The notes beneath the pieces are model-generated. The model was not told where the DNA came from. It was given only the letters and a program-made list of their open reading frames with translations, and did no database searches. The position numbers and the translations under genes are program-made. From a virus (lineage: Duplodnaviria > Heunggongvirae > Uroviricota > Caudoviricetes): a stretch of DNA of 42,975 nt. Location of the stretch: IMG/VR virus record IMGVR_UViG_2663763400_000010. One strand, 5' to 3'. This document shows, one piece after another, positions 1 through 23,566 of this stretch. How positions within the stretch are numbered: the stretch's first letter is position 1; each line of letters opens with the position of its first letter.

Positions 1-198
1 ATGGCACTGGACAGTTATGCATCTCCGAATATTATTCCGGAGCTAAGACAACCGAATGCCGCAGCAGGTAAGATCACGCTAGGGGGGCTGGACAGAATGG
101 CTGTTACGCCCAGTGTGAAGAAAAGAAGGCTAAGTATGGTAGAATTTCCATACGCACAGACCTTGTTATCCGACTATACAGCCTGGAAGGCACTATGA
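1..198 (+). CDS. hypothetical protein, probably the 3-prime end of a gene continuing left of the window
   Basis: ORF reaches coordinate 1; its stop overlaps the ATG of the next ORF (ATGA at 195-198), suggesting an operon. No recognisable motif. Confidence 0.3.
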   Translation: MALDSYASPNIIPELRQPNAAAGKITLGGLDRMAVTPSVKKRRLSMVEFPYAQTLLSDYTAWKAL

Positions 199-983
199 CA
201 AATCTACAACTGGAAGAAAGATTTAGGGCGCTTGAGAAAGATTACGATGCGCTCATTTCCACAAAATATACTGCGCAGAACGTTCTCACTCACACTATGG
301 AAACCTATGTTGATTCTGGTAAATATAAAAACTGGATCGCCAGAGTGAAAAAGTTAATAGAGGACAGCTACGGAAAAGAGTCTGATTATTACAATGACTT
401 CAATACTGTAAACAGCAGGTGGTCTTCTAATTACAATACACTGATCAAAAGTTATAAACCGTTGTTTGATGCGGCGAGAGATGATCTTGCGCACTCTGCT
501 GTCAGTACTAATACTCCTCAAGAAGGTTCGCCGCTGAGCCTCGTACTTAATATTCTTAACAGGTTTCCGACCTTTGTTCGCCAGTTAAAGAGGCGGTACA
601 ACGGCCGTGCGCCGCTTGAAGTTAATGATGAGTATGACGTACAGGATTTGATTTATGCACTGCTGACGCTTCATTTTAATGATATTAGGGCGGAAGAGTA
701 TACCCCCAGCTTTGCGGGCGCGGCCTCAAGACAGGACTTTCTTTTGAAAAAAGAGAAAATTGTGATAGAGGTGAAGAAAACCCGTGAATCTCTGGGAGCG
801 GGTAAAGTTGGTGGAGAGTTGCTTATTGATATGGCGCGCTACCGCGCTCACCAAGACTGCGATACGTTGATCTTGTTTGTATATGACCCGGATTGCTACA
901 TAAATAATCCTTTGGGCGTGAAAACCGATCTGGAATCTAAAGACGCGGAAGGAAAAGTGAAGGTTGTTATTGCGCAGTTCTGA
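195..983 (+). CDS. hypothetical protein with C-terminal PD-(D/E)xK-like nuclease signature
   Basis: 262 aa from ATG at 195, translationally coupled to upstream ORF. C-terminal half shows D...ExK spacing (SRQDFLL...IVIEVKK) typical of PD-(D/E)xK nucleases; N-terminal half looks helical. Family not recognised; lower GC than phage structural genes. Confidence 0.45.
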   Translation: MTNLQLEERFRALEKDYDALISTKYTAQNVLTHTMETYVDSGKYKNWIARVKKLIEDSYGKESDYYNDFNTVNSRWSSNYNTLIKSYKPLFDAARDDLAHSAVSTNTPQEGSPLSLVLNILNRFPTFVRQLKRRYNGRAPLEVNDEYDVQDLIYALLTLHFNDIRAEEYTPSFAGAASRQDFLLKKEKIVIEVKKTRESLGAGKVGGELLIDMARYRAHQDCDTLILFVYDPDCYINNPLGVKTDLESKDAEGKVKVVIAQF

Positions 984-1016
984 CACGCTTAAGTGTCACC
1001 TTACAGGATTAGGTTT

Positions 1017-1065
1017 GCGGCCGTGCCAGCAGGACGAGCATGAAAAAGGCCGCTGGCACGGCCGG
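1017..1065. terminator. GC-rich stem-loop between convergent genes (possible bidirectional terminator)
   Basis: GCGGCCGTGCCAGC ...21 nt... GCTGGCACGGCCGG inverted repeat between the stop at 983 and the minus-strand gene ending at 1071. Confidence 0.35.
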
Positions 1066-1070
1066 ATTTG

Positions 1071-1364
1071 TCATCTTTGCCAGGTCAAATCAAAATCTAC
1101 GTGAAAATCCGCAGGCTTAAGCTCGCAACTGCCACCACGCCCAATTAACGACGTTATGTTTACAACGTTTGAACCTGTTGAGATGGCAAGTTGAGTGTCA
1201 TCTGTAAACGTGATGATTAGCATTTCAGTCTGATGAACCTGTACTCCAGTTTTCTGAAAACCAATCTGGACAGATTTCACCGTTTTCCCAACCATTTCAC
1301 GGGCTTGATTGATAGAGTAATTAGCTTCAACTTGTAGGTCATTCCTGAACTTGGGTAGTGTCAT
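1071..1364 (-). CDS. hypothetical small protein (97 aa)
   Basis: Clean ORF with no competing frame; no recognisable motif. Confidence 0.4.
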   Translation of the reverse strand: MTLPKFRNDLQVEANYSINQAREMVGKTVKSVQIGFQKTGVQVHQTEMLIITFTDDTQLAISTGSNVVNITSLIGRGGSCELKPADFHVDFDLTWQR

Positions 1365-1574
1365 TTTACATCCTCTTTAGTGAAGTTTTCGCTATTTAAA
1401 TCAGCAGCATTCCTTTTAAATCACTGGCATGTCAGCAGTGGATAGTCTGAGTGTAACGTCCAGTGAGGGGAATAAATATTGGTCAGACTTTGCACAAAAG
1501 AGCCAACTATCGCGGGCTCTCTCTCATCATGTGCGAAAATTGACCACAATATGAAATCCAGTTCCATTCCGAAA

Positions 1575-2399
<825 letters not shown>

Positions 2400-2495
2400 T
2401 CAATTGACAACTTATAATCCCTACTAGTTAGCATTATGATTTCCAGAGTGAGGAATATAAAAATCTCTGTTTCTGGCACATAACAGCCCTTAAGA

Positions 2496-2555
2496 TCGTA
2501 GCTCGCCATCATGGGGTGTCGGGGGGCGGAGGTTCAAATCCTCTCGTGCCGACCA
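2496..2555 (+). other. 3-prime fragment of a tRNA-Pro(GGG)-like gene (anticodon loop to CCA); att-core-like junction, not an intact tRNA
   Basis: 2509-2555 reads anticodon loop CATGGGGTG (anticodon GGG), variable loop, T-arm GGAGG-TTCAAAT-CCTCT, acceptor 3-prime strand CGTGCCG, discriminator A and CCA, matching recalled enterobacterial proL. Only degenerate similarity at 2496-2508, and no 5-prime acceptor strand (CGGCACG) or D-arm upstream. Confidence 0.6.
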
Positions 2556-2568
2556 AAAATCCCTTAAG

Positions 2569-2597
2569 AACCAGCCTATTATGGCTGGTTTTTTTAT
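2569..2597 (+). terminator. Rho-independent terminator just 3-prime of the tRNA fragment
   Basis: AACCAGCC-TATTAT-GGCTGGTT hairpin followed by a run of T. Confidence 0.6.
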
Positions 2598-2735
2598 GAT
2601 TGTTTTTTATGCGGAGAAATACCGGGGAATAATTGGGGTAAAACACCTTTAGGCTATTCACTTAGCCTACCACCATCAAAATCTTTCCGAATGTATCCAT
2701 CTCTTTTTTCTTATGCAGCTAAAACGAAGTCTTGA

Positions 2736-2755
2736 TACTGTTTATTTACACAGAT
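2736..2755 (+). promoter_or_regulatory. LexA (SOS) box, perfect CTGT-N8-ACAG
   Basis: TACTGTTTATTTACACAGAT about 45 bp upstream of the dinI-like ATG. Confidence 0.55.
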
Positions 2756-2763
2756 AAGAATAA

Positions 2764-2783
2764 TACTGTCTACAAACGCAGTA
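2764..2783 (+). promoter_or_regulatory. second, weaker LexA-like box (CTGT-N8-GCAG)
   Basis: TACTGTCTACAAACGCAGTA with one mismatch to consensus, directly upstream of the dinI-like ATG. Confidence 0.4.
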
Positions 2784-2796
2784 CAAAAGAAGTGTT

Positions 2797-3044
2797 ATGC
2801 GTATTGAGATCTCCATAGCCAAAGACAAAATGACCAAATGCCAAACGGCGCTGTGGACGCGTTAAAGGAAGAATTAACCCAACACATTGGCAAGCGTTAT
2901 GACGATGTGGAGATGATCGTAAAAGCCACCAGCAACGATAGTTTTTCAGTTAGACATACTGCAGATAAAGATTGAGCTAAAACTTTCGTTCAGGAAACTC
3001 TGAATGATACCTGAGAGTCTACTGAAGAGTTGTTTGTTCACTAG
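2797..3044 (+). pseudogene. dinI-like gene, apparently disrupted (frameshift in an A-run plus two in-frame TGA codons)
   Basis: Frame A encodes [14 protein letters not shown] then stops; the +1 frame continues [71 protein letters not shown]. Together these resemble DinI (MRIEVTIAK...IDAL...LQETWES). Short enough to be missing from the ORF track. Confidence 0.5.
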
Positions 3045-3399
3045 TTAGCACGTAGGAAATCATTCAATACTCGCACTATCGGAAGTTCACCAGCCAGTCG
3101 TAGCACGTCCTTGCAAACGACGTGCCTACGGTTTCAATCACCTCTCACCATCAATTCTATCAATAATAATTAAACAGCGCCTAGACAAAATAAATAACAA
3201 CAAGTCAACAACCTCGACAGGATGCCGATGGGATGATGAAGAGATAAGAAAGAATAACCAGTAAAGCCCTAAAACGTCAGCGTTCAGACGCGTTTTTTAC
3301 TTAATCGGTAACAAATACGTTGTATCATAGCAAAATAAAATGATTGTTCTAAATCAGATTAACTCCTCACTTTTGTACAATGTCGCTTACAGGTATACC

Positions 3400-3699
3400 A
3401 TGAAATCCGAGACGCTAACTGTCCAACAACTTTTTCAAGACCGCCGACAATACTGTGTTCCATTCTATCAACGTGCCTATGTATGGACTCAGCAAGACCA
3501 GTGGTCAGCTCTACTGGAGGATATCCTAGAGAAAGTACAATCCCGGCTCTCGGGTACAAAACCAACTCCCCATTTCCTTGGTGCGGTTGTACTGGAACCT
3601 CAATCAAAAAAAGGATTATTAGGTGTAGATTCCATACATATTATTGATGGTCAGCAACGATTGACCACTCTTCAATATGTTCTGGCATCCATCCGATTA
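3400..3699 (+). pseudogene. GmrSD-family type IV restriction-like gene, N-terminal fragment (DUF262-type), truncated by IS2
   Basis: Contains FYQRAYVW and [11 protein letters not shown] (DGQQR) motifs of the DUF262/ParB-like domain. ATG at 3400 preferred over the ORF track start at 3340. The frame runs straight into the IS2 left end, where a stop is supplied by the IS. Confidence 0.65.
3695..3699. repeat. IS2 target site duplication, left copy (GATTA)
   Basis: Identical 5-bp GATTA directly abuts both IS2 ends (3695-3699 and 5031-5035). Confidence 0.8.
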
Positions 3700-3790
3700 T
3701 AGACTGGCCCCCTGAATCTCCAGACAACCAATATCACTTAAATAAGTGATAGTCTTAATACTAGTTTTTAGACTAGTCATTGGAGAACAG

Positions 3791-4156
3791 ATGATTGATG
3801 TCTTAGGGCCGGAGAAACGCAGACGGCGTACTACACAGGAAAAGATCGCTATCGTTCAGCAGAGCTTTGAACCGGGAATGACGGTCTCCCTTGTTGCCCG
3901 GCAACATGGTGTGGCAGCCAGCCAGCTATTTCTCTGGCGTAAGCAATACCAGGAGGGAAGTCTTACTGCTGTGGCTGCCGGAGAACAGGTCGTTCCTGCC
4001 TCTGAACTTGCTGCCGCCATGAAGCAGATTAAAGAACTCCAGCGTCTGCTCGGCAAAAAAACGATGGAAAATGAACTCCTTAAAGAAGCCGTTGAATATG
4101 GGCGAGCAAAAAAGTGGATAGCGCACGCGCCCTTATTGCCCGGGGATGGGGAGTAA
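3791..4156 (+). CDS. insC: IS2 transposase OrfA (InsC)
   Basis: [41 protein letters not shown]..., 121 aa, HTH transposase OrfA. ATG at 3791 rather than the upstream alternative start in the ORF track. Confidence 0.85.
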
Positions 4157-5019
4157 GCTTCGTCAGCCGTTGTCTCCGGGTGTCGCGTGCGCAGTTGCAC
4201 GTCATTCTCAGACGAGCCGATGACTGGAAGGACGGCCGCCGCAGCCGTCACACGGATGATACGGATGTGCTTCGCCGTATACACCATGTTATCGGAGAGC
4301 TACCCACATATGGTTATCGTCGGGTATGGGCGCTGCTTCGCAGACAAACAGAACTTGATGGTATGCCTGCGATCAATGCCAAACGTGTTTACCGGATCAT
4401 GCGCCAGAATGCGCTGTTGCTTGAGCGAAAACCCGCTGTACCGCCATCGAAACGGGCACATACCGGCAGAGTGGCTGTGAAAGAAAGTAATCAGCGATGG
4501 TGCTCTGACGGGTTTGAGTTCCGCTGTGATAACGGAGAAAAACTGCGGGTCACGTTCGCGCTGGACTGCTGTGACCGTGAGGCACTGCACTGGGCGGTCA
4601 CAACGGGTGGCTTCGACAGTGAAACAGTACAGGACGTCATGCTGGGAGCAGTGGAACGCCGCTTTGGCAGCGAGCTTCCGGCGTCTCCAGTGGAGTGGCT
4701 GACGGATAATGGTTCATGCTACCGGGCGAATGAAACACGTCAGTTCGCCAGGATGTTGGGACTTGAACCGAAGAACACGGCAGTGCGGAGTCCGGAGAGT
4801 AACGGAATAGCAGAGAGCTTCGTGAAAACGATAAAGCGTGACTACATAAGTATCATGCCCAAACCAGACGGGTTAACGGCAGCAAAGAACCTTGCAGAGG
4901 CGTTCGAGCATTATAACGAATGGCATCCGCATAGTGCGCTGGGTTATCGCTCGCCACGGGAATATCTGCGGCAGTGGGCCAGTGATGGGTTAAGTGATAA
5001 CAGGTGTCTGGAAATATAG
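4114..5019 (+). CDS. insD: IS2 transposase OrfB (InsD), DDE catalytic domain; made as OrfAB fusion by -1 frameshift
   Basis: 301-aa ORF overlapping insC in the -1 frame; A-AAA-AAG heptamer at about 4108-4114. Confidence 0.85.
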
Positions 5020-5030
5020 GGGCAAATCCA

Positions 5031-5035
5031 GATTA
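5031..5035. repeat. IS2 target site duplication, right copy (GATTA)
   Basis: See left copy. Confidence 0.8.
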
Positions 5036-6625
5036 GCATTACGTGCTACGGATCTTTCCAGCTTAGAGGCTCTCATTTCGCCTTGCCTGAAAAACTCAAA
5101 CGAAGACACAATGCGAAATAAAGAAGTAGAACGCTTCAAACTGTGGCCAACTTTTCGGGATCAAACTCATTTTATTCAAAGTTTTAATGTTGAAAATATT
5201 GACGATCTCCGGGACGTATTCTCTGATAGTTTCACGCAGCATGGTACGTTGCGTAAGCATTTTAATCACCCGCCATCACTAGAAGCATTATGTTTTTTTA
5301 CTGAAGCCTTTATAAAATGGATTAAAATAGAAAACCACTCACCACAAGAAAATGCTGTAGCTCTAATTGAGGCTGTCTTAACAGATCTGAAACTGGTAAG
5401 CATATTTCTCGAAGCTGAAGATGATGCCCAAATAATTTTTGAAACATTAAATGGGCGAGGGGCGGAACTTCATGCTACGGATCTTATTCGCAACTATATC
5501 TTTATGTGCGCTGAGCATGAAAATATTAATGCTATTGAATTATATGAAAATGAGTGGAAGAGCTTTGAAGATAAATACTGGTCGGAAAAACAACGCCGTG
5601 GACGTATTAATAAACCACGCATGGAGTGGCTAGTACATGCGACATTGCAATCAGAAAGGCAACGTGAAATTGATCTGTCTCGCCTTTACAATGAGTATCG
5701 TGATTATGTAAGTAAGGACTTGTCTTCACAACGAGCAGATCTGCAAGTAAAGCGCCTCAAACAATATGCATCACAATATAAAGAATTGGTTGATGGTTTT
5801 GGCACAACCCCCATCTCACACTTTGGATATCGCATCGCAGACTATGATGTGACGACACTTTATCCGCTTGCTTTGTTCATTTCGATAGCTAACATCGCTG
5901 ATGATGAGAAAGCAGCCATGTATAATGATCTTGTCTCCTACGTAGTACGAAGAGCCGTATGTGGCCTGACGCCAAAGAATTACAACAATGTATTTATGAA
6001 TGTATTGCGGCACTTGGCTAAAACGGAAATTTCCAGTGTTGAGTTACGTAATATCCTCAATAACTTAAATGGCGAAGCCTCACGTTGGCCTGGTGACTCA
6101 GAATTTCTCAACGCTTGCATCAATGCTCCACTTTATCCTGGCAGGCTCGACGCACCGAAAATGCGCTCAATGTTAACGGAACTTGAAAGAGAACTTTGTC
6201 GCCAAGTAAAGACAGAAAAGCCTGATGTTCCAAATCTTTCTAATCTCGATATCGATCATCTTATGCCTCAAAGTTGGTATTCCTGTTGGCCTCTCGAAAA
6301 TGGTCGTATGGTGACAAATTCAGATGCTACGGTATTGAACCAAATTGTTCTGTCTGGAACCGATCTTACCCCTGAACAGCTACTGGTAAGGAAACGGCAA
6401 CAAGCGATATCTACTTTGGGAAATCTAACTTTGCTTAACCTTAGCGTAAACCGTTCTGTTCAGAATGCTGTATTTCTGAAAAAACGTGATGCTCTCATCG
6501 TCCACACCAATCTACGACTGAACATTCCACTTATAGTTAAGGATAAATGGGATGAGGATGAAATCCTGGAGCGGGGTAAAAAGTTGGGGGAAATTGCATT
6601 GAAAGTATGGCCAAAACACGATTAA
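5036..6625 (+). pseudogene. GmrSD-family type IV restriction-like gene, C-terminal fragment (DUF1524/HNH-like), downstream of IS2
   Basis: Same frame as the N-terminal fragment once IS2 and one GATTA copy are removed (...ASIRL | ALRATDLSS...). C-terminal region has LDIDHLMPQSW ... NLTLLNLSVNRS, the His-Me finger-like motif of DUF1524. The ORF track start at 4994 lies inside IS2 and is an artefact. Confidence 0.65.
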
Positions 6626-6720
6626 TGCAATTAATAAAATGATTATAGTGGCCTTACATTAGTAAGGCCGCTACTCACTATTAAATACTTTAATTTGCAT
6701 CAAGAACAGCAGTGTCAGCC

Positions 6721-6849
6721 CTAGGTCTCGGACTTTGTACCGCTTATCTTGTCTTCAAAAATCAGCTCGCATCCTGCACAGTTCAGCGCATTACGTTGTA
6801 GATCTGTGTTCTGGTCATTTGTTGACACACGTACATAGCCAATAAGCAT
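6721..6849 (-). pseudogene. pin: truncated Pin/Gin/Hin-family serine DNA invertase (first 42 codons only)
   Basis: Minus-strand translation MLIGYVRVSTNDQNTDLQRNALNCAGCELIFEDKISGTKSET then TAG; near-identical to recalled invertase N-termini (MLIGYVRVSTNDQNTDLQRNAL...). No invertase-like sequence in any frame downstream. Below the ORF track length cutoff. Confidence 0.7.
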
Positions 6850-6875
6850 GGTAGATCTCCCTGACAAAAGCAGGA

Positions 6876-7370
6876 ATGATGCCATTTGCTCGTTATTTCT
6901 GCATTTTCATAAACGTTGGTTTGGGAGAAGGCTCTGCATTACCTGTTGGTGTGCCTGTTCCATGGCCTTCAGCCACACCGCCAACAGGCTGGCTGAAATG
7001 CAACGGTGCGGCTTTTTCTGCTGAAGAATACCCGGAACTGGCAAAGGCTTATCCGACAAATAAATTGCCTGATTTACGTGGTGAGTTTATTCGTGGCTGG
7101 GATGATGGGCGCGGCGTTGATTCAAGGCGTGCGGTGCTGTCAACACAAGAGCCAACTGTAGGTACTTTTTATGTGGAGCTAGCTATCATCTCGGGAACTT
7201 TGAGCGGCTCAGGTGCTAAATTTACCGATTCAGTAGGGATTGGATCAACCAGTAGTAACATTACCGTTAGCAACGGTAATGACCAGTCCGTGTCGGGTAC
7301 AGTGGCCGTTAACCCCGTCGGTACCCGTCCACGCAACATTGCATTTAACTATATCGTGAGAGCAGCATAA
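6876..7370 (+). CDS. silent alternative tail-fibre C-terminal cassette (would be fused to the fibre N-terminus after inversion)
   Basis: No credible independent start; from 6930 encodes GSALPVGVPVPWPSATPPTGWLKCNGAAFSAEEYPELAKAYPTNKLPDLRGEFIRGWDDGRGVDSRR, typical of phage tail-fibre C-terminal (collar-type) domains. Reading frame is continuous through the crossover site. Confidence 0.55.
   Translation: MMPFARYFCIFINVGLGEGSALPVGVPVPWPSATPPTGWLKCNGAAFSAEEYPELAKAYPTNKLPDLRGEFIRGWDDGRGVDSRRAVLSTQEPTVGTFYVELAIISGTLSGSGAKFTDSVGIGSTSSNITVSNGNDQSVSGTVAVNPVGTRPRNIAFNYIVRAA
6904..6929. other. 26-bp invertase crossover site (gix/pix-like), invertase-proximal copy
   Basis: TTTTCATAAACG-TT-GGTTTGGGAGAA; its reverse complement matches the site at 8831-8856 at 21 of 26 positions (first 14 identical) and each site is an imperfect palindrome. 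Confidence 0.65.
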
Positions 7371-7972
7371 TGGATAAAGCAATATTAAATAGTGGACTTG
7401 TTGCTACAAAGGCAGGGGATATTACCGTTTATAACTATGATGGTGAAACTCGGGAATATATTTCCACTTCAAGTGAATATCTTGCCGTTGGTGTTGGTAT
7501 CCCGGCATATTCCTGTCTGGATGCACCAGGTATACATAAGGCGGGTTATGCTATCTGTCGTTCTGTGAATTTAAATTCATGGGAATATGTGCCAGACCAT
7601 CGCGGTGAAATCGTCTATAACACCGAAACGGGAGAATCAAAACAAATCACAGCACCGGGTGATTACCCCGAAAATACAACCACTATTGCCCCATTAACGC
7701 CATACGATAAATGGGATGGTGAGAAATGGGTGACCGATACTGAGGCACAGCATAGCGCCGCAGTAGACGCGGCAGAAGCACAGCGTCAGTCACTGATTGA
7801 TGCTGCAATGGCTTCCATCGGTCTGATTCAGCTGAAATTACAGGCCGGACGGAAGCTGATGCAGGCAGAAACAACCCGGCTTAACGCTGTGCTGGATTAC
7901 ATTGACGCGGTGACGGCAACAAATACCAGCACAGCGCCGGATGTCATCTGGCCTGAACTGCCGGAGGCGTAG
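7370..7972 (+). CDS. tail fibre assembly protein (partner of the silent cassette)
   Basis: 200 aa; C-terminus ...DYIDAVTATNTSTAPDVIWPELPEA is the conserved tail-fibre-assembly (Tfa) C-terminal region; start codon overlaps the cassette stop. Confidence 0.65.
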   Translation: MDKAILNSGLVATKAGDITVYNYDGETREYISTSSEYLAVGVGIPAYSCLDAPGIHKAGYAICRSVNLNSWEYVPDHRGEIVYNTETGESKQITAPGDYPENTTTIAPLTPYDKWDGEKWVTDTEAQHSAAVDAAEAQRQSLIDAAMASIGLIQLKLQAGRKLMQAETTRLNAVLDYIDAVTATNTSTAPDVIWPELPEA

Positions 7973-8387
7973 GCCATTCAATATCTGGCGCACAGGAAGT
8001 ATCGACCAGTTCCAGTGCGTCCAGATAATCCAGCCACGAATTATATTGCGCCAGTTCCTCGCCTTTCAGACGACCAATAGCAGCTTTGCCAGGCCACTGA
8101 TGGGTATTGATGTAGGTATTGACTTCTGAAACCAAAGATATTTTTTTCATTTCAGCCGTCAACACCTCATCCTCTTTTGAAGGGGGTGGGGAATTAATCC
8201 ATACTGGCCGTCCTGAACTGTCAGCGCCAATTTCTTTCCCTTCTGGATGCAGACCAAGAAATTGCTCATATGTTTCTCTGGTAATTTCAATAACATCATC
8301 AGGAAGCGTTCCCGCATCCTCATATTCTGGAAACAATTCTTGCAGATAAAAACTTTTACTTCCGGGTGAAAAGAATACTGAGTTCAT
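7944..8387 (-). CDS. tail fibre assembly protein (expressed orientation)
   Basis: 147 aa; C-terminus ...DYLDALELVDTSCAPDIEWPTPPAVQAR is Tfa-like; immediately downstream of the fibre gene. Confidence 0.7.
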   Translation of the reverse strand: MNSVFFSPGSKSFYLQELFPEYEDAGTLPDDVIEITRETYEQFLGLHPEGKEIGADSSGRPVWINSPPPSKEDEVLTAEMKKISLVSEVNTYINTHQWPGKAAIGRLKGEELAQYNSWLDYLDALELVDTSCAPDIEWPTPPAVQAR

Positions 8388-8389
8388 TA

Positions 8390-9133
8390 TTACCGTCCAA
8401 TGATTAACGCTGAGACGCTGGTATCTGAAGGAAAGGCTGCATTCAGTGGTTTGTCGACTTTGAACACAATCGTATTATTCCCCCTGACAGCGGCAAAAGA
8501 ACAAACCGCCGTCGCGTATGAACCTGTAATATTACTGGATACACCACCATAAGCTGTTGTTGATACCAGAGGGATAACGCCCAGCACCTTATTAGGAAAT
8601 ACAAAGGGCAATGTGGCTGTGGCAATATAAGACTTATTAGAACCTGTGATGGCATAAGCATTATCAGTCATTCCATTCATCGCCACTGGGCCGCTTATAC
8701 TTACAGTAACCATCTGAATGATTAGCCCGTCAGGTTGACGAATCACAAAATTTCCATTGCCACCAGTAACCGTCCAGAAAGACATATCAGGGATTTGGTT
8801 TTCCCCGTTGCCCACATTCCGTTTTGCCGCTTCTCCCAAACCAAGGTTTTCGAGAGCCGTTTTCACCGTGCCGTCCGATTTGATATCGCTAAACGGATTC
8901 TTGCGGCTTAACAGCAGCGCACGAAGCGCGGTAAGCAGCTGGTCGTGCCGCGCCTTCTCCAGACTGGCACCGGATGCCTCCACCACGCTGCAGAGTTCTT
9001 CCTGCAACATGTCAAAGTAGTCATCATCCAGATCGGTGGCAGGCGTGCCTGTCTGGGGGTTACCACGGGTAAAACCGTTCTTACCCGCGCCGAACTTATC
9101 CTTCTGCGCGGTTTTCGTGTCTATACGATGCAT
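8390..9133 (-). CDS. tail fibre protein (constant N-terminus plus current variable C-terminus)
   Basis: N-terminus [47 protein letters not shown]... is the conserved side-tail-fibre N-terminal domain; crossover site lies at ...ALENLGLGE. Confidence 0.75.
8831..8856. other. 26-bp invertase crossover site inside the tail-fibre gene
   Basis: TTCTCCCAAACC-AA-GGTTTTCGAGAG, inverted relative to 6904-6929. Confidence 0.65.
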
Positions 9134-9136
9134 GGA

Positions 9137-9721
9137 TTACTCCGGATATTTAAAAATTACGTAGGTATGCGAAGGGCAGAGTTTGTTAAGCACACATTCG
9201 ACGACGGTGTCGCCCCAGATACGCAGCGCGGAATCACAGGGATCGCCACATGTCATCCAGGTGCTGTTGGTGGCGGCTGGCATGTTGACCTGCCAGTAAT
9301 ACCGCCATTCCGGCGCATTCACCGCGTCAGTACAGGCCGATGAGCAGGTGAACGTGCTTTTGTCGTATCGCGTGATGGTGGCGTCTGGTCTGCCCAGGGC
9401 AGCAAGCTGTGCAAGGTAAAAATCCTCATTGATGCCGCCCGCCAGGTTAACCTTCGCATCCAGTCGTTGCTGACGCTGGCGAAGGGTCTGTGTTCCTGCG
9501 GGAATACATTCATCCGGCAGGCCGCACAGACGCTCCCAGCGATTTATCAGTTCGGTGGTGGTGCGCGGATCCAGCTCCCGCATCAGGGCATCCGCACGCT
9601 GATGAACGCGGGTTAATGACTGTGCCGCACCGGCAATCGCCGGATCGCTGGCTGACCACGCCGGACCGGGCGGCAGCAGTGCCGACAACAGACGGATGTA
9701 ATCATCGTTTGTCACGCCCAT
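9137..9721 (-). CDS. tail protein, Mu gp48-like / YmfQ-like (DUF2313)
   Basis: 194 aa between baseplate J and the fibre gene, the conserved position in Mu-type tail modules; sequence pattern recalled as YmfQ-like. Confidence 0.55.
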
Positions 9722-14194: not shown

Positions 14195-16030
14195 TTACCT
14201 GCCAAAGCGCGTATAGCCAACATCATGGCTGACATCAAAACCGCTGGATCGCGTTTCCATAACCCGCATACCCGGAGGTGAATTCACAAAAGAGACCTTG
14301 ATCTCACCATCAACTTTTGGCGCAGAAGCTTTGTTAATCATGAAGGGATTCGGGCCTGTGGCACCGGAGGCGTTGTTTGACTGAGCCGGATCCACCGCCT
14401 GATAAGGTGTGTATCCCCGTGCCGGTATTCCCGTCCCATAAGCATCATAAGCACCCGCGCCCCACTGCGCAGAGTTAATGGCATCGACCGTGTCACCGGA
14501 ACTGTCGGTAAACCACTCAATAATTGGCTTCAGCTTGTCCCACATATCCTGAAACCACTTAACAACCGGTCCCCAGTTATTGATTACCATCCCCAGCGGC
14601 GACCAGGCAAAAACCTTCTTCAGAAGTTCCCGGCCAGCCTCAAAATAAGGACCAATGGTTTCCCAGAGCTTCTTGAAATAAGGTCCGACAACATCCCAGT
14701 TAGTGATAATTAATCCCGCAGCCAGGGCTATCGCCGTCGCAATCATGCCAATCGGCGTCATCGACATGATCCTGCTGACAATACTGATGGCACCGCCAAC
14801 GCCCATCAATCCCAGTTTCAGAATCGCAAGACCGGCAGCAAGCCCGACGACGCCGCGAATAACCCGGGGATTTTCATCCGCAAACTTCGTGAATTTCTCC
14901 CCCAACTCCCCCAGCCATTGCGTGATATTTTTAGCGTCACCAGAAAATGCGCCGCCAATAGCCGCAAGGCCGTTAGTTGCGGTCCCTGTCATTGCCTCCC
15001 ACAGGTTGGACAGCGTACCAAGCTGTGCCTGAACACGTTTATTCAGACTGGCCTGTTTATTCATCTTCTGCTGGATCTGGTCGTAGCCATCCTTTCCTTT
15101 ATCGATTAGTGCATTGACCACCTGAAGGGTTTCGGCATCATCACCAAATATTGCCTTAAGTACACCAGTTCGCTTAACGTCGGTCAGTTTTCGCAGCTTT
15201 GCCAGTTGCCTGAACATGTTATCAAGACCGCCAAAACTCCCTTTGCCGTCAGTAAAATCGAGCTGTACCCCGAGTTTCTGGCGGGCCATGACTTTATTGA
15301 CGTCCCTGATTTTCTTAACGCTTAATCCGGACTGGATAACTTTTCGCAGGGCGTTACCTGCCGACTCCCCGTTCATCCCCATCTGATCCATCATGACGCT
15401 GATGGGGGCAAGGCTCTGTGCAGCCTGAAGACCGTCCTTGTTCACCATCTTCAGAACAGAGCTGGTTTTAGTGAAGAAGGACAACATGTTGGTATCGTCA
15501 ACGCCCAGATAAAACGCCTTCTGGATAGTGTCGAACAGCCCCATCATGTCTTCTGACGCCGTTCCGGTAGCATCCTGCATCTTTGCGGCAAACTCGGCAG
15601 CCGCTTCCGGTGTTTTTTTCAGTTGTACCGCAAGATAAGCTGTCGCTTTACCCACACCGCCAAGAATGTTTTCTGCCGGGATCCCCTGACGCACCAGCAT
15701 CTGCATCATGTTCTGGAAATCAGCCGTTGTACCGGGTAGCTGGTTACCCAGACCAATAGCCAGTTTATTGATGTCCTGAAAGCGCTTTCCGACCTCACCG
15801 TTCGCATCCATCATGGCAACTTTCAGCCCGGTGGCGGCGTTTTCCTGATCGGCATAAGATTTCAGGGAAAGCGTCAGACCCGCAGCCAGTCCGCCACCAA
15901 GCGCCAGCCCACCCTGTGACGCTTCTTCCGCCTGGCGTTTAAATCCCCGGATTTTCTTTTGCATTTTCGACAGCGCGGGAGAAAGCCTGTCGACACCGGT
16001 GATCAACGCCTTAAGCTCAAATTCAGCCAT
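14195..16030 (-). CDS. tail tape measure protein
   Basis: 611 aa, Ala/Gly-rich helical protein downstream of the chaperone pair. Confidence 0.75.
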   Translation of the reverse strand: MAEFELKALITGVDRLSPALSKMQKKIRGFKRQAEEASQGGLALGGGLAAGLTLSLKSYADQENAATGLKVAMMDANGEVGKRFQDINKLAIGLGNQLPGTTADFQNMMQMLVRQGIPAENILGGVGKATAYLAVQLKKTPEAAAEFAAKMQDATGTASEDMMGLFDTIQKAFYLGVDDTNMLSFFTKTSSVLKMVNKDGLQAAQSLAPISVMMDQMGMNGESAGNALRKVIQSGLSVKKIRDVNKVMARQKLGVQLDFTDGKGSFGGLDNMFRQLAKLRKLTDVKRTGVLKAIFGDDAETLQVVNALIDKGKDGYDQIQQKMNKQASLNKRVQAQLGTLSNLWEAMTGTATNGLAAIGGAFSGDAKNITQWLGELGEKFTKFADENPRVIRGVVGLAAGLAILKLGLMGVGGAISIVSRIMSMTPIGMIATAIALAAGLIITNWDVVGPYFKKLWETIGPYFEAGRELLKKVFAWSPLGMVINNWGPVVKWFQDMWDKLKPIIEWFTDSSGDTVDAINSAQWGAGAYDAYGTGIPARGYTPYQAVDPAQSNNASGATGPNPFMINKASAPKVDGEIKVSFVNSPPGMRVMETRSSGFDVSHDVGYTRFGR

Positions 16031-22347: not shown

Positions 22348-23566
22348 TGGCGTTATCCTTCTGCTTACCGGCTTTACTGCCATCGGAGGGTTTCGTGGTC
22401 ATGTTCATCGGTGTGAGATAGACATCCCCACCGGGACGGGGATTCATATCTTCCAGGTCGCGGCAGTCATTGGGAGAGTAAATTCCCCAGTTAATCCCGG
22501 TGGCGTAGGCTTCAAAACGGGACTTCATATCCCCGCGCAGTAACGCCCCGGCGTTAAATTTGGCGTAATAAACGCCCTGCTTACTTTTTCGAACCAGTCC
22601 GGTGTTGATCCGCTGCTCGATGCGGGTCAGATACGGCACCAGTGAATAGTTGATAAATCCCAGCCCCAGCTCTTCAATATTGTTGAAGGTGGCGCGATCG
22701 GTGTTCTGCACCATGTGCAACGGCACCCGGAACAGACGACAGATTTCTTCAAGCTGAAACTTGCGGGTTTCCAGGAACTGGCTGTCCTCGGCGTTCAGCG
22801 CCATCGACTTCCAGTCCAGCCCCATCTCAAGGATCATCGGGCGGTGAGCATTACCAAGCCCGGTGTGACGCTCCTCAAAATCTTTCTTCAGGCGCTCGTA
22901 AGCCTGATCTGACAGCGTCTGCTCTGTACGCAACACACCCGACGTCACCGCACCATTGCTGAACAGTCTGGCCCCGTGCTCTTCGGTCGCAGCTGCCAGC
23001 GATATTGCCTCGCGGGCATAGGCGATGGGATTCAGCCCCACCAGACCGTCCAGCGTCAGCGTGCGCACATGCCAGATATCTTCCTGGCTCAGCACATCCG
23101 TGGAGCCGTCCGAGAATGTGACCTGATAGACCGGCTCCCAGCTACTGTTAAGCTTCGGTACCACACAGCCAGGATCGACGGGCAGCAGTTCAGCCACTTC
23201 GCCAAATGCTTTCACTTTGTAGGCGTAAAAGTTTCCCCGCAGGCACAGACAGGTGACCACCAGCTCCCAGAACTCCTGCGGCGTCATATAGCCATTGGGA
23301 TGCGTGGAGATCAGCTTATGCAGACGTTCGCCGGTGGCCCTCTGTTTCAGGCTGCCGTTCAGGTGATACAGATTGCAGGGCAACATCCCGACCGACTCTG
23401 CCAGCACCCTGACGCAGGAAAAAACCGCCGTCAGTCGCATGGCCCGCTGGCTGCTGATCTGCTTTCCGGTATAGGTGTCGTATGACAGCCCGATAGCCTC
23501 CGCCAGCTCTGCTGGCGTGGTCACCGGCGCGTCACTTTTTCGTTGAAATAATCCCGAAAAGAACAC
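22325..23566 (-). CDS. portal protein, HK97 family
   Basis: 413 aa immediately downstream of the terminase large subunit. Confidence 0.85.
   Translation of the reverse strand: MFFSGLFQRKSDAPVTTPAELAEAIGLSYDTYTGKQISSQRAMRLTAVFSCVRVLAESVGMLPCNLYHLNGSLKQRATGERLHKLISTHPNGYMTPQEFWELVVTCLCLRGNFYAYKVKAFGEVAELLPVDPGCVVPKLNSSWEPVYQVTFSDGSTDVLSQEDIWHVRTLTLDGLVGLNPIAYAREAISLAAATEEHGARLFSNGAVTSGVLRTEQTLSDQAYERLKKDFEERHTGLGNAHRPMILEMGLDWKSMALNAEDSQFLETRKFQLEEICRLFRVPLHMVQNTDRATFNNIEELGLGFINYSLVPYLTRIEQRINTGLVRKSKQGVYYAKFNAGALLRGDMKSRFEAYATGINWGIYSPNDCRDLEDMNPRPGGDVYLTPMNMTTKPSDGSKAGKQKDNANADETTS

Follow-up and report, generated by a model that had tools for sequence, protein, structure and literature searches.

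Introduction

The G segment of phage Mu and the C segment of phage P1 are bounded by 26-bp crossover sites and carry alternative tail-fibre C-termini together with their chaperones; both phages encode a working invertase (Gin or Cin), and a Fis-dependent recombinational enhancer is located within the 5' portion of the invertase gene (nucleotides [nt] 19 to 90 in the annotation of cin). The P segment of e14, a cryptic prophage of strain K-12 in which the genes are stfP, tfaP, tfaE and stfE and the invertase is PinE, is of the same kind. Gin, Cin, Pin and Hin can substitute for each other, and the H segment of Salmonella is flipped by Fin of Fels-2. A recent study (Kirigo et al. 2025, PMC12529663) reports that the e14 P segment of K-12 is inverted by PinQ (from the Qin prophage), by PinR and by PinE, and that 33% of the 562 E. 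coli genome sequences examined had inversions. Here we describe a P-type segment within a stretch of 42,975 nt from a tailed virus of the Caudoviricetes (IMG/VR record IMGVR_UViG_2663763400_000010; the whole stretch is referred to as the window), in which pinE is reduced to a stub of 42 codons. We consider it likely that this is an e14-type P segment which has lost its own invertase, has kept its crossover sites and the enhancer stretch and is still flipped by invertases supplied in trans.

The locus resembles that of e14 in its gene order (ymfQ, baseplate J), in the in-frame fusion design and in that the slot following pin holds a type IV restriction gene, and it has 94 to 95% identity, with the same gene order, to e14 loci at icd over positions 6728 to 9140. 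It differs in that pinE is cut at codon 41 and a GmrSD gene takes the place of the pin 3' part and mcrA. Furthermore, the present prophage lies beside ssrA and looks complete (∼40 kb), whereas e14 is a 15-kb remnant at icd, and the segment is 1,929 bp rather than 1,797 bp in length, with both cassettes intact. A further difference from P1 is that cin adjoins its crossover site by its 3' end and not by its 5' end. The closest parallels for inversion from another prophage, with both orientations present in sequenced genomes, are the action of Fin on the H segment and that of PinQ and PinR on e14 (PMC12529663); in those cases the cis invertase (Hin or PinE) is intact and trans action is redundant, whereas here it would be the only route.

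Results

The window comprises the left part of an ssrA-adjacent island and the ∼40-kb prophage and has 99.9 to 100% identity to strains of extraintestinal pathogenic E. coli (ExPEC), such as IHE3034 and APEC O1. The prophage is apparently a complete, ssrA-adjacent element of a sequence type 95 (ST95)-like ExPEC lineage. A query in which the segment was inverted in silico (window positions 6300 to 6915, the reverse complement of 6916 to 8844 and positions 8845 to 9140; 2,841 nt) was compared with complete genomes. The inverted form was detected over all 2,841 nt in at least 60 complete E. coli genomes, 55 being listed at 100.0% identity and 5 at 99.9%. These matches consisted of one or two colinear pieces, one being interrupted by an IS3-family element, and the carriers included UTI89, NU14, S88, APEC O18 and the type strain ATCC 11775. 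The orientation seen in the window was present in 24 complete genomes. As the same stub and the same GmrSD junction occurred in both orientation groups, the segment has been inverted since the truncation. A preliminary description of this DNA, made from the sequence alone, had held that the switch should be frozen in its current orientation unless an invertase acted in trans; the genome counts and the linked substitutions described below contradict the first part, and the proviso becomes the operative case, given both orientations with a dead cis invertase.

The number of events was examined in 42-kb loci from nine genomes, for which the orientation was normalized and the variants were listed. 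The normalized haplotypes differed by ≤8 substitutions. A subclade was marked by three single nucleotide polymorphisms (SNPs), numbered by the UTI89 locus: 14468 in ssrA, 6 kb to the left of the segment; 22721, 190 bp to its right; and 40791, 18 kb to its right. Within this subclade, GN06489 and GN04275 had the orientation of the window while SF-166 and SCU-123 had the reverse one. Of the genomes that did not belong to it, UTI89, ATCC 11775 and E16002 were in the opposite orientation to the window, IHE3034 and APEC O1. All four combinations of SNP and orientation were found, and hence the four-gamete test, which assumes no recombination, indicated at least two inversions after truncation, or else a single inversion and a recombinational transfer with very tight bounds. 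GN06489 and SF-166 differed by two mismatches and one gap in 42.5 kb and yet had opposite orientations. Four further genomes with 99.9% identity had other private SNPs and added nothing to the four-gamete test. This comparison between genomes indicated that the segment has flipped at least twice since the truncation.

A single inversion would suffice if the mixed pattern had been produced by homologous import of the segment, or by replacement of the whole prophage, among ST95 strains. A recombination tract of a few kilobases in E. coli could carry the 1.9-kb segment and its junctions and spare the SNP located 190 bp to the right, but for this the tract must end within 190 bp of the segment on one side, and the donor must have had a prophage that was identical in all other respects. 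Furthermore, the chromosomal SNP at 14468 co-segregates with the prophage SNPs at 22721 and 40791, which argues for vertical descent, and the import model still requires one inversion after truncation. We therefore regard import as improbable.

The two crossover sites matched at 21 of 26 positions when compared as an inverted repeat, with identical inner half-sites, and the repeat contained a 15-bp identical stretch with 19 matches over 20 positions overall. The 20-mer CTTCTCCCAAACCAASGTTT, common to both sites, was present in two copies in the window, one on each strand, whereas none was expected from 100 shuffles. The left site was identical to the e14 site of strain KE58, and this site, the leader and the first 122 nt of the invertase gene matched pix/pinE of that e14 at 207 of 208 positions. 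The 16-mer TTGGTTTGGGAGAAGG at positions 6916 to 6931 is the repeat given for the K-12 P segment in PMC12529663. Both sites encode GLGE in frame, with the fibre gene lying within the segment from GLGE onward. Simulated inversion produced a 247-amino-acid (aa) hybrid fibre with an uninterrupted reading frame. RefSeq lists this hybrid as an annotated protein (WP_000554665.1) for genomes with the opposite orientation, in which the fibre C-terminus of cassette 2, lacking a promoter in the window, is joined to the constant part. Each inversion would exchange the fibre C-terminus and chaperone attached to the constant fibre N-terminus.

Overall, the locus has the inverted 26-bp sites with a shared central dinucleotide, the inverting segment and the in-frame swap of fibre C-termini, each with its own chaperone, that are typical of the Gin/Hin/Pin/Cin class, whereas a functional serine invertase (∼185 to 195 aa, with a catalytic domain, helix E and a helix-turn-helix) does not adjoin the segment. 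In these respects, namely, a segment flanked by two inverted 26-bp sites and a G/C/P-type design in which two cassettes are joined in frame at GLGE, the preliminary description was accurate. In one carrier, PA45B (locus L003, positions 6280 to 8440), the segment was decaying, with frameshifted or partial fibre and chaperone genes and an identity of 96%, and the orphan switch is therefore not kept up everywhere.

The remnant of the invertase gene, read from position 6849 on the minus strand, encodes MLIGYVRVSTNDQNTDLQRNALNCAGCELIFEDKISGTKSE followed by Thr and a stop. This open reading frame, which begins MLIGYVRVSTNDQ and ends in SGTKSE plus the Thr, has 42 codons (6849 to 6724, with the stop at 6721 to 6723) and is labelled in RefSeq as 'recombinase family protein, incomplete, missing C-terminus'. 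The product has ∼79% aa identity to both Gin and Cin and keeps the catalytic-serine motif YVRVST without the remaining catalytic domain, helix E or the DNA-binding domain, matching only positions 2 to 48 of the 145 in the Pfam Resolvase profile. No other invertase sequence was detected in the window by tblastn and blastn with PinE, Gin, Cin, PinR and P2-type invertase queries, nor was a full-length invertase open reading frame present at the locus. Homology to the intact e14 pinE (strain KE58, at icd) broke sharply at 6728/6727; beyond this break were 100 bp of unrelated sequence and then the 3' end of the convergent GmrSD gene. The equivalent slot in e14 holds full-length pinE and then mcrA, which encodes another type IV enzyme. 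An insertion that displaced the pin 3' part to another place in the window was considered and rejected, as no pin 3' sequence was found there. An old rearrangement would have exchanged all pinE sequence 3' of codon 41 for the GmrSD restriction module, and because of this replacement the element is unable to make its own invertase. Both the truncation to 42 codons (41 of them native), with no invertase sequence following, and the replacement of the pin 3' part by restriction-type cargo had been proposed beforehand and held up.

The stub retains nt 1 to 122 of the invertase gene and aligned to cin, gin and pinE without gaps (a P2-type invertase gene was also aligned). This alignment to gin and pin, which the preliminary description had suggested as a check, covered the annotated cin enhancer, and by homology the stub thus retains the enhancer region, as had been surmised. 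The homologue of cin nt 19 to 90 lies fully within the stub, so inversion in trans is mechanistically plausible. In systems of this class, the enhancer carries two Fis sites and is located in cis ∼100 bp from one crossover site. Here, the left site has its centre 85 bp from the near edge of the ∼70-bp enhancer-homologous stretch and ∼96 bp from the candidate proximal Fis site; these distances are comparable to the native spacing of hix and enhancer in the Hin system, 99 bp (PMC3798978). Candidate Fis sites were located at 6814 to 6828 and 6765 to 6779 (gene nt 22 to 36 and 71 to 85; 49 bp apart) by a simple motif scan, which is only suggestive. The cis requirements of a Gin-class reaction appear to be intact, and the stub may act as the enhancer. 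A natural spacing variant exists in APEC IMT5155 (locus L002, positions 3118 to 6001), where an IS66-family element (ISCro1) between the pin stub and the left site places the putative enhancer ∼2.7 kb from the site; a second IS66 element splits GmrSD in this strain.

Possible sources of an invertase were examined with composite queries that joined a single-copy GmrSD anchor to invertase 3' parts, and the number of places matched per record was read at blastn sensitivity. This count gives the presence or absence of a second locus and not its position or intactness, including for UTI89 and IHE3034, and the 60 chromosome rows listed represent 57 distinct strains, with UTI89 appearing four times. 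The anchor was single-copy in every stub-bearing genome of the sampled listing (the highest count anywhere was 2), so the extra places are invertase related. A second locus matching the 3' two-thirds of Gin-, Pin-, Cin- or P2-type invertase genes was detected in 26 of the 60 rows, including those of UTI89, IHE3034, NU14, APEC O18 and GN04275. In a further seven rows the match was confined to the 3' part of pinR or the 5' end of pin, giving 33 of 60 with a Pin- or PinR-type locus. The rarer orientation was over-represented where a second Pin-type locus was present (8/11 versus 15/45; Fisher p = 0.037), although this value is uncorrected for phylogeny and, with genomes that are not independent, constitutes weak evidence. 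Pin-family genes were also present on 2,515 plasmid records, 514 of them from Escherichia. A P2-like prophage of GDAR2-2 (locus L005, positions 4556 to 8166) carries a segment with the same sites and 98% identity over 6728 to 8855 but differs in having an intact 188-aa invertase and the long constant part of a P2-type fibre. This prophage, in which the cassettes and sites are common to an unrelated phage type, shows that cassettes move between types of phage, and it is a possible donor in trans.

These findings are consistent with a segment that would now and then be inverted in trans by invertases of the Gin/Pin family or of the PinQ/PinR type, which would come from other prophages, phages or plasmids, whether resident or passing through. 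We infer that the flips are invertase catalysed and that catalysis is intermittent, depending on whichever Pin-class enzyme is present. Four observations weigh against this interpretation. By blastn, 27 of the 60 rows had no Pin- or PinR-type locus, including ATCC 11775, SF-166, SCU-123 and GN06489; no invertase match was found in the first 50 kb of one GN06489 plasmid, the only plasmid stretch examined; the enhancer-homologous part of the stub was no better conserved than its flanks (0.95 versus 0.95, in a small sample of four diverged truncated loci); and the product junctions look alike whether strands were exchanged at the 2-bp core or at another point of the 15-bp identical stretch. As the strains with no match include subclade members of both orientations, some flips took place in lineages in which the chromosome now holds no candidate, and the catalyst there would have to be transient, plasmid-borne or more divergent.

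The last of these points, the presence of short inverted repeats (15 bp exact, 19/20 overall) and the many stub-bearing genomes, in both orientations, that lack a detectable chromosomal invertase homologue are all compatible with an invertase-free process, in which rare recombination or template switching occurs between the repeats. A repeat of 15 bp is, however, below the length required for efficient RecA recombination, and at least two events at a divergence of a few SNPs in 42 kb imply, by rough reckoning, a rate far above that expected for short repeats. Moreover, the repeats are bona fide invertase sites with 100% identity to the functional pix of e14. Invertase-free inversion thus carries a small probability, and catalysis in trans by Pin-class enzymes is the interpretation that we prefer.

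The GmrSD 3' region was detected once per genome in 323 of 5,426 complete genomes, with 123 at ≥99% identity and 199 at 95 to 99%. The truncated configuration, with the same breakpoint in ∼320 complete genomes, is common, occurring in ∼6% of complete E. coli genomes, among them the reference ExPEC strains UTI89, IHE3034, S88 and APEC O1 and the type strain of the species. Truncated loci were present in several prophage contexts with 4 to 6% divergence, and three diverged examples had exactly the same pin breakpoint and junction sequence. In SW4848 the truncated form is in a genuine e14 at icd, D3 represents another context and GPT24-02 has the same breakpoint in an intS prophage (locus L017, positions 2643 to 4283) with different cargo, only the last 161 bp being shared. 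The common breakpoint and junction in diverged loci indicate that the truncation is, on this comparison, a single old event which has since spread among e14-like elements and did not arise in this prophage. The earlier proposal that the pin 3' part was replaced when the cargo was acquired was therefore correct as to replacement and incorrect if read as a recent, private event. The cargo beside the stub in GPT24-02 is a 445-aa hypothetical protein in place of GmrSD, which suggests that the cargo may have been exchanged again in that prophage. It is hardly conceivable that the switch is truly frozen and that two separate truncations, or errors of assembly, gave rise to the two orientations. Nothing speaks for this beyond the missing cis invertase, whereas one and the same breakpoint and 100-bp junction occur in either orientation and also in diverged lineages, a repeat of 15 to 26 bp cannot mislead assemblers and colinear matches were found in dozens of complete genomes assembled independently in different laboratories.

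The features of the locus and its surroundings are collected in Table 1.

Table 1. Features of the invertible segment and neighbouring genes (positions in the window)
Feature	Position	Strand	Remarks
DpnII/MboI-type restriction endonuclease domain protein	195-983		262 aa
LEM-3-like GIY-YIG nuclease	1575-2381		
GmrSD (DUF262/DUF1524) type IV restriction gene	3340-6625	+	Convergent with pin stub; split by IS2
IS2	3700-5030		1,331 bp; limits by comparison with IHE3034
Junction sequence, GmrSD stop codon to pin breakpoint	6626-6727		Common to all truncated loci examined, one with different cargo
pinE stub	6721-6849	-	41 native codons + Thr + TAG; RefSeq pseudogene annotation
Stretch homologous to Cin recombinational enhancer (gene nt 19-90)	6760-6831	-	P1 record annotation and alignment
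Left 26-bp crossover site (pix-type)	6904-6929		Core TT at 6916-6917; inner half codes GLGE of silent cassette
P-type invertible segment	6916-8844		1,929 bp, core to core; based on inverted-form matches in genomes
Silent fibre C-terminus, cassette 2	6930-7370	+	Pfam Collar, E 9e-16
TfaE-type chaperone, cassette 2	7370-7972	+	Pfam Caudo_TAP, E 4e-30
Tail-fibre assembly chaperone, cassette 1	7944-8387	-	Pfam Caudo_TAP, E 6e-28
Tail-fibre gene, expressed state	8390-9133	-	Weak Gp53-like_C match; RefSeq WP_000554664.1
Variable C-terminus 1 of fibre gene	8390-8844	-	
Right 26-bp crossover site	8831-8856		Core AA at 8843-8844, within codon Leu97 of fibre gene
Constant N-terminus of fibre gene	8845-9133	-	

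The intact 629-aa GmrSD allele of IHE3034 has both GmrSD_N (E 7e-34) and GmrSD_C (E 4e-20) in a single protein, and the gene is likewise intact in UTI89 and the other genomes examined. In the window, the insertion sequence IS2 splits GmrSD after codon 120 and is flanked by a 5-bp target duplication, GATTA, at 3695 to 3699 and 5031 to 5035. No IS2 was found at the same GmrSD position among complete RefSeq genomes. Because IS2 interrupts the gene, the GmrSD cargo is probably inactive in the strain from which the window derives. Positions 195 to 3340, which lie between the prophage end and ssrA (itself located a short distance upstream of the window), contain a run of nuclease- and defence-type genes with the appearance of a small defence island bordering the prophage; the GIY-YIG nuclease gene is followed by a DinI-like pseudogene (annotated in IHE3034) and then by GmrSD. 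A stretch at ∼2501 to 2555 ending in GGAGGTTCAAATCCTCTCGTGCCGACCA resembles the 3' half of a tRNA (tRNA-Pro), with its T-arm and acceptor. Neither ARAGORN nor Rfam gave a match to a tRNA gene at ∼2501 to 2555, and this stretch is probably an attachment-site remnant at the border of two tandem elements.

Discussion

The orphan segment described here, which is still flipping, is a natural variant of the known e14-, Mu- and P1-like switches; lacking an invertase, it does not form a self-contained inversion system. That the e14 P segment can be inverted in trans is already known, having been published in 2025, and the stub is marked as a pseudogene in RefSeq. The new findings are the evidence from populations of genomes that the orphan form is widespread and long-lived and has been inverted repeatedly, and the coincidence of the retained stub with the enhancer. 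The replacement of McrA by GmrSD is also a clean example of a defence-gene swap at a prophage end in which the adjacent gene was clipped.

A more speculative proposal is that the 123-nt stub was kept because it is a cis enhancer, making the locus a 'public' switch for visiting or resident invertases of the Gin, Pin and PinQ types that is exploited by the host. If so, the fibre states could serve the host, for example, in a phase-variable receptor-masking anti-phage function like that of StfE2 in K-12, and not only the phage. No conservation signal for retention of the stub as an enhancer was found in the four diverged truncated loci, and we consider this proposal rather unlikely. In K-12, deletion of pinE is reported to lock the P segment although pinQ and pinR remain (PMC12529663). 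It is possible that this lock arose from loss of the enhancer in the 5' end of pinE, and the stub-bearing prophages are a natural test case for the need for an intragenic enhancer in trans inversion in vivo.

Overall, an annotated 'pseudogene invertase' does not mean a locked phenotype. Isolates that are otherwise almost identical may differ in prophage fibre type and in any host phenotype linked to it, and a phage host-range switch can outlive its own recombinase and stay operable if the crossover sites, and probably the enhancer, survive.

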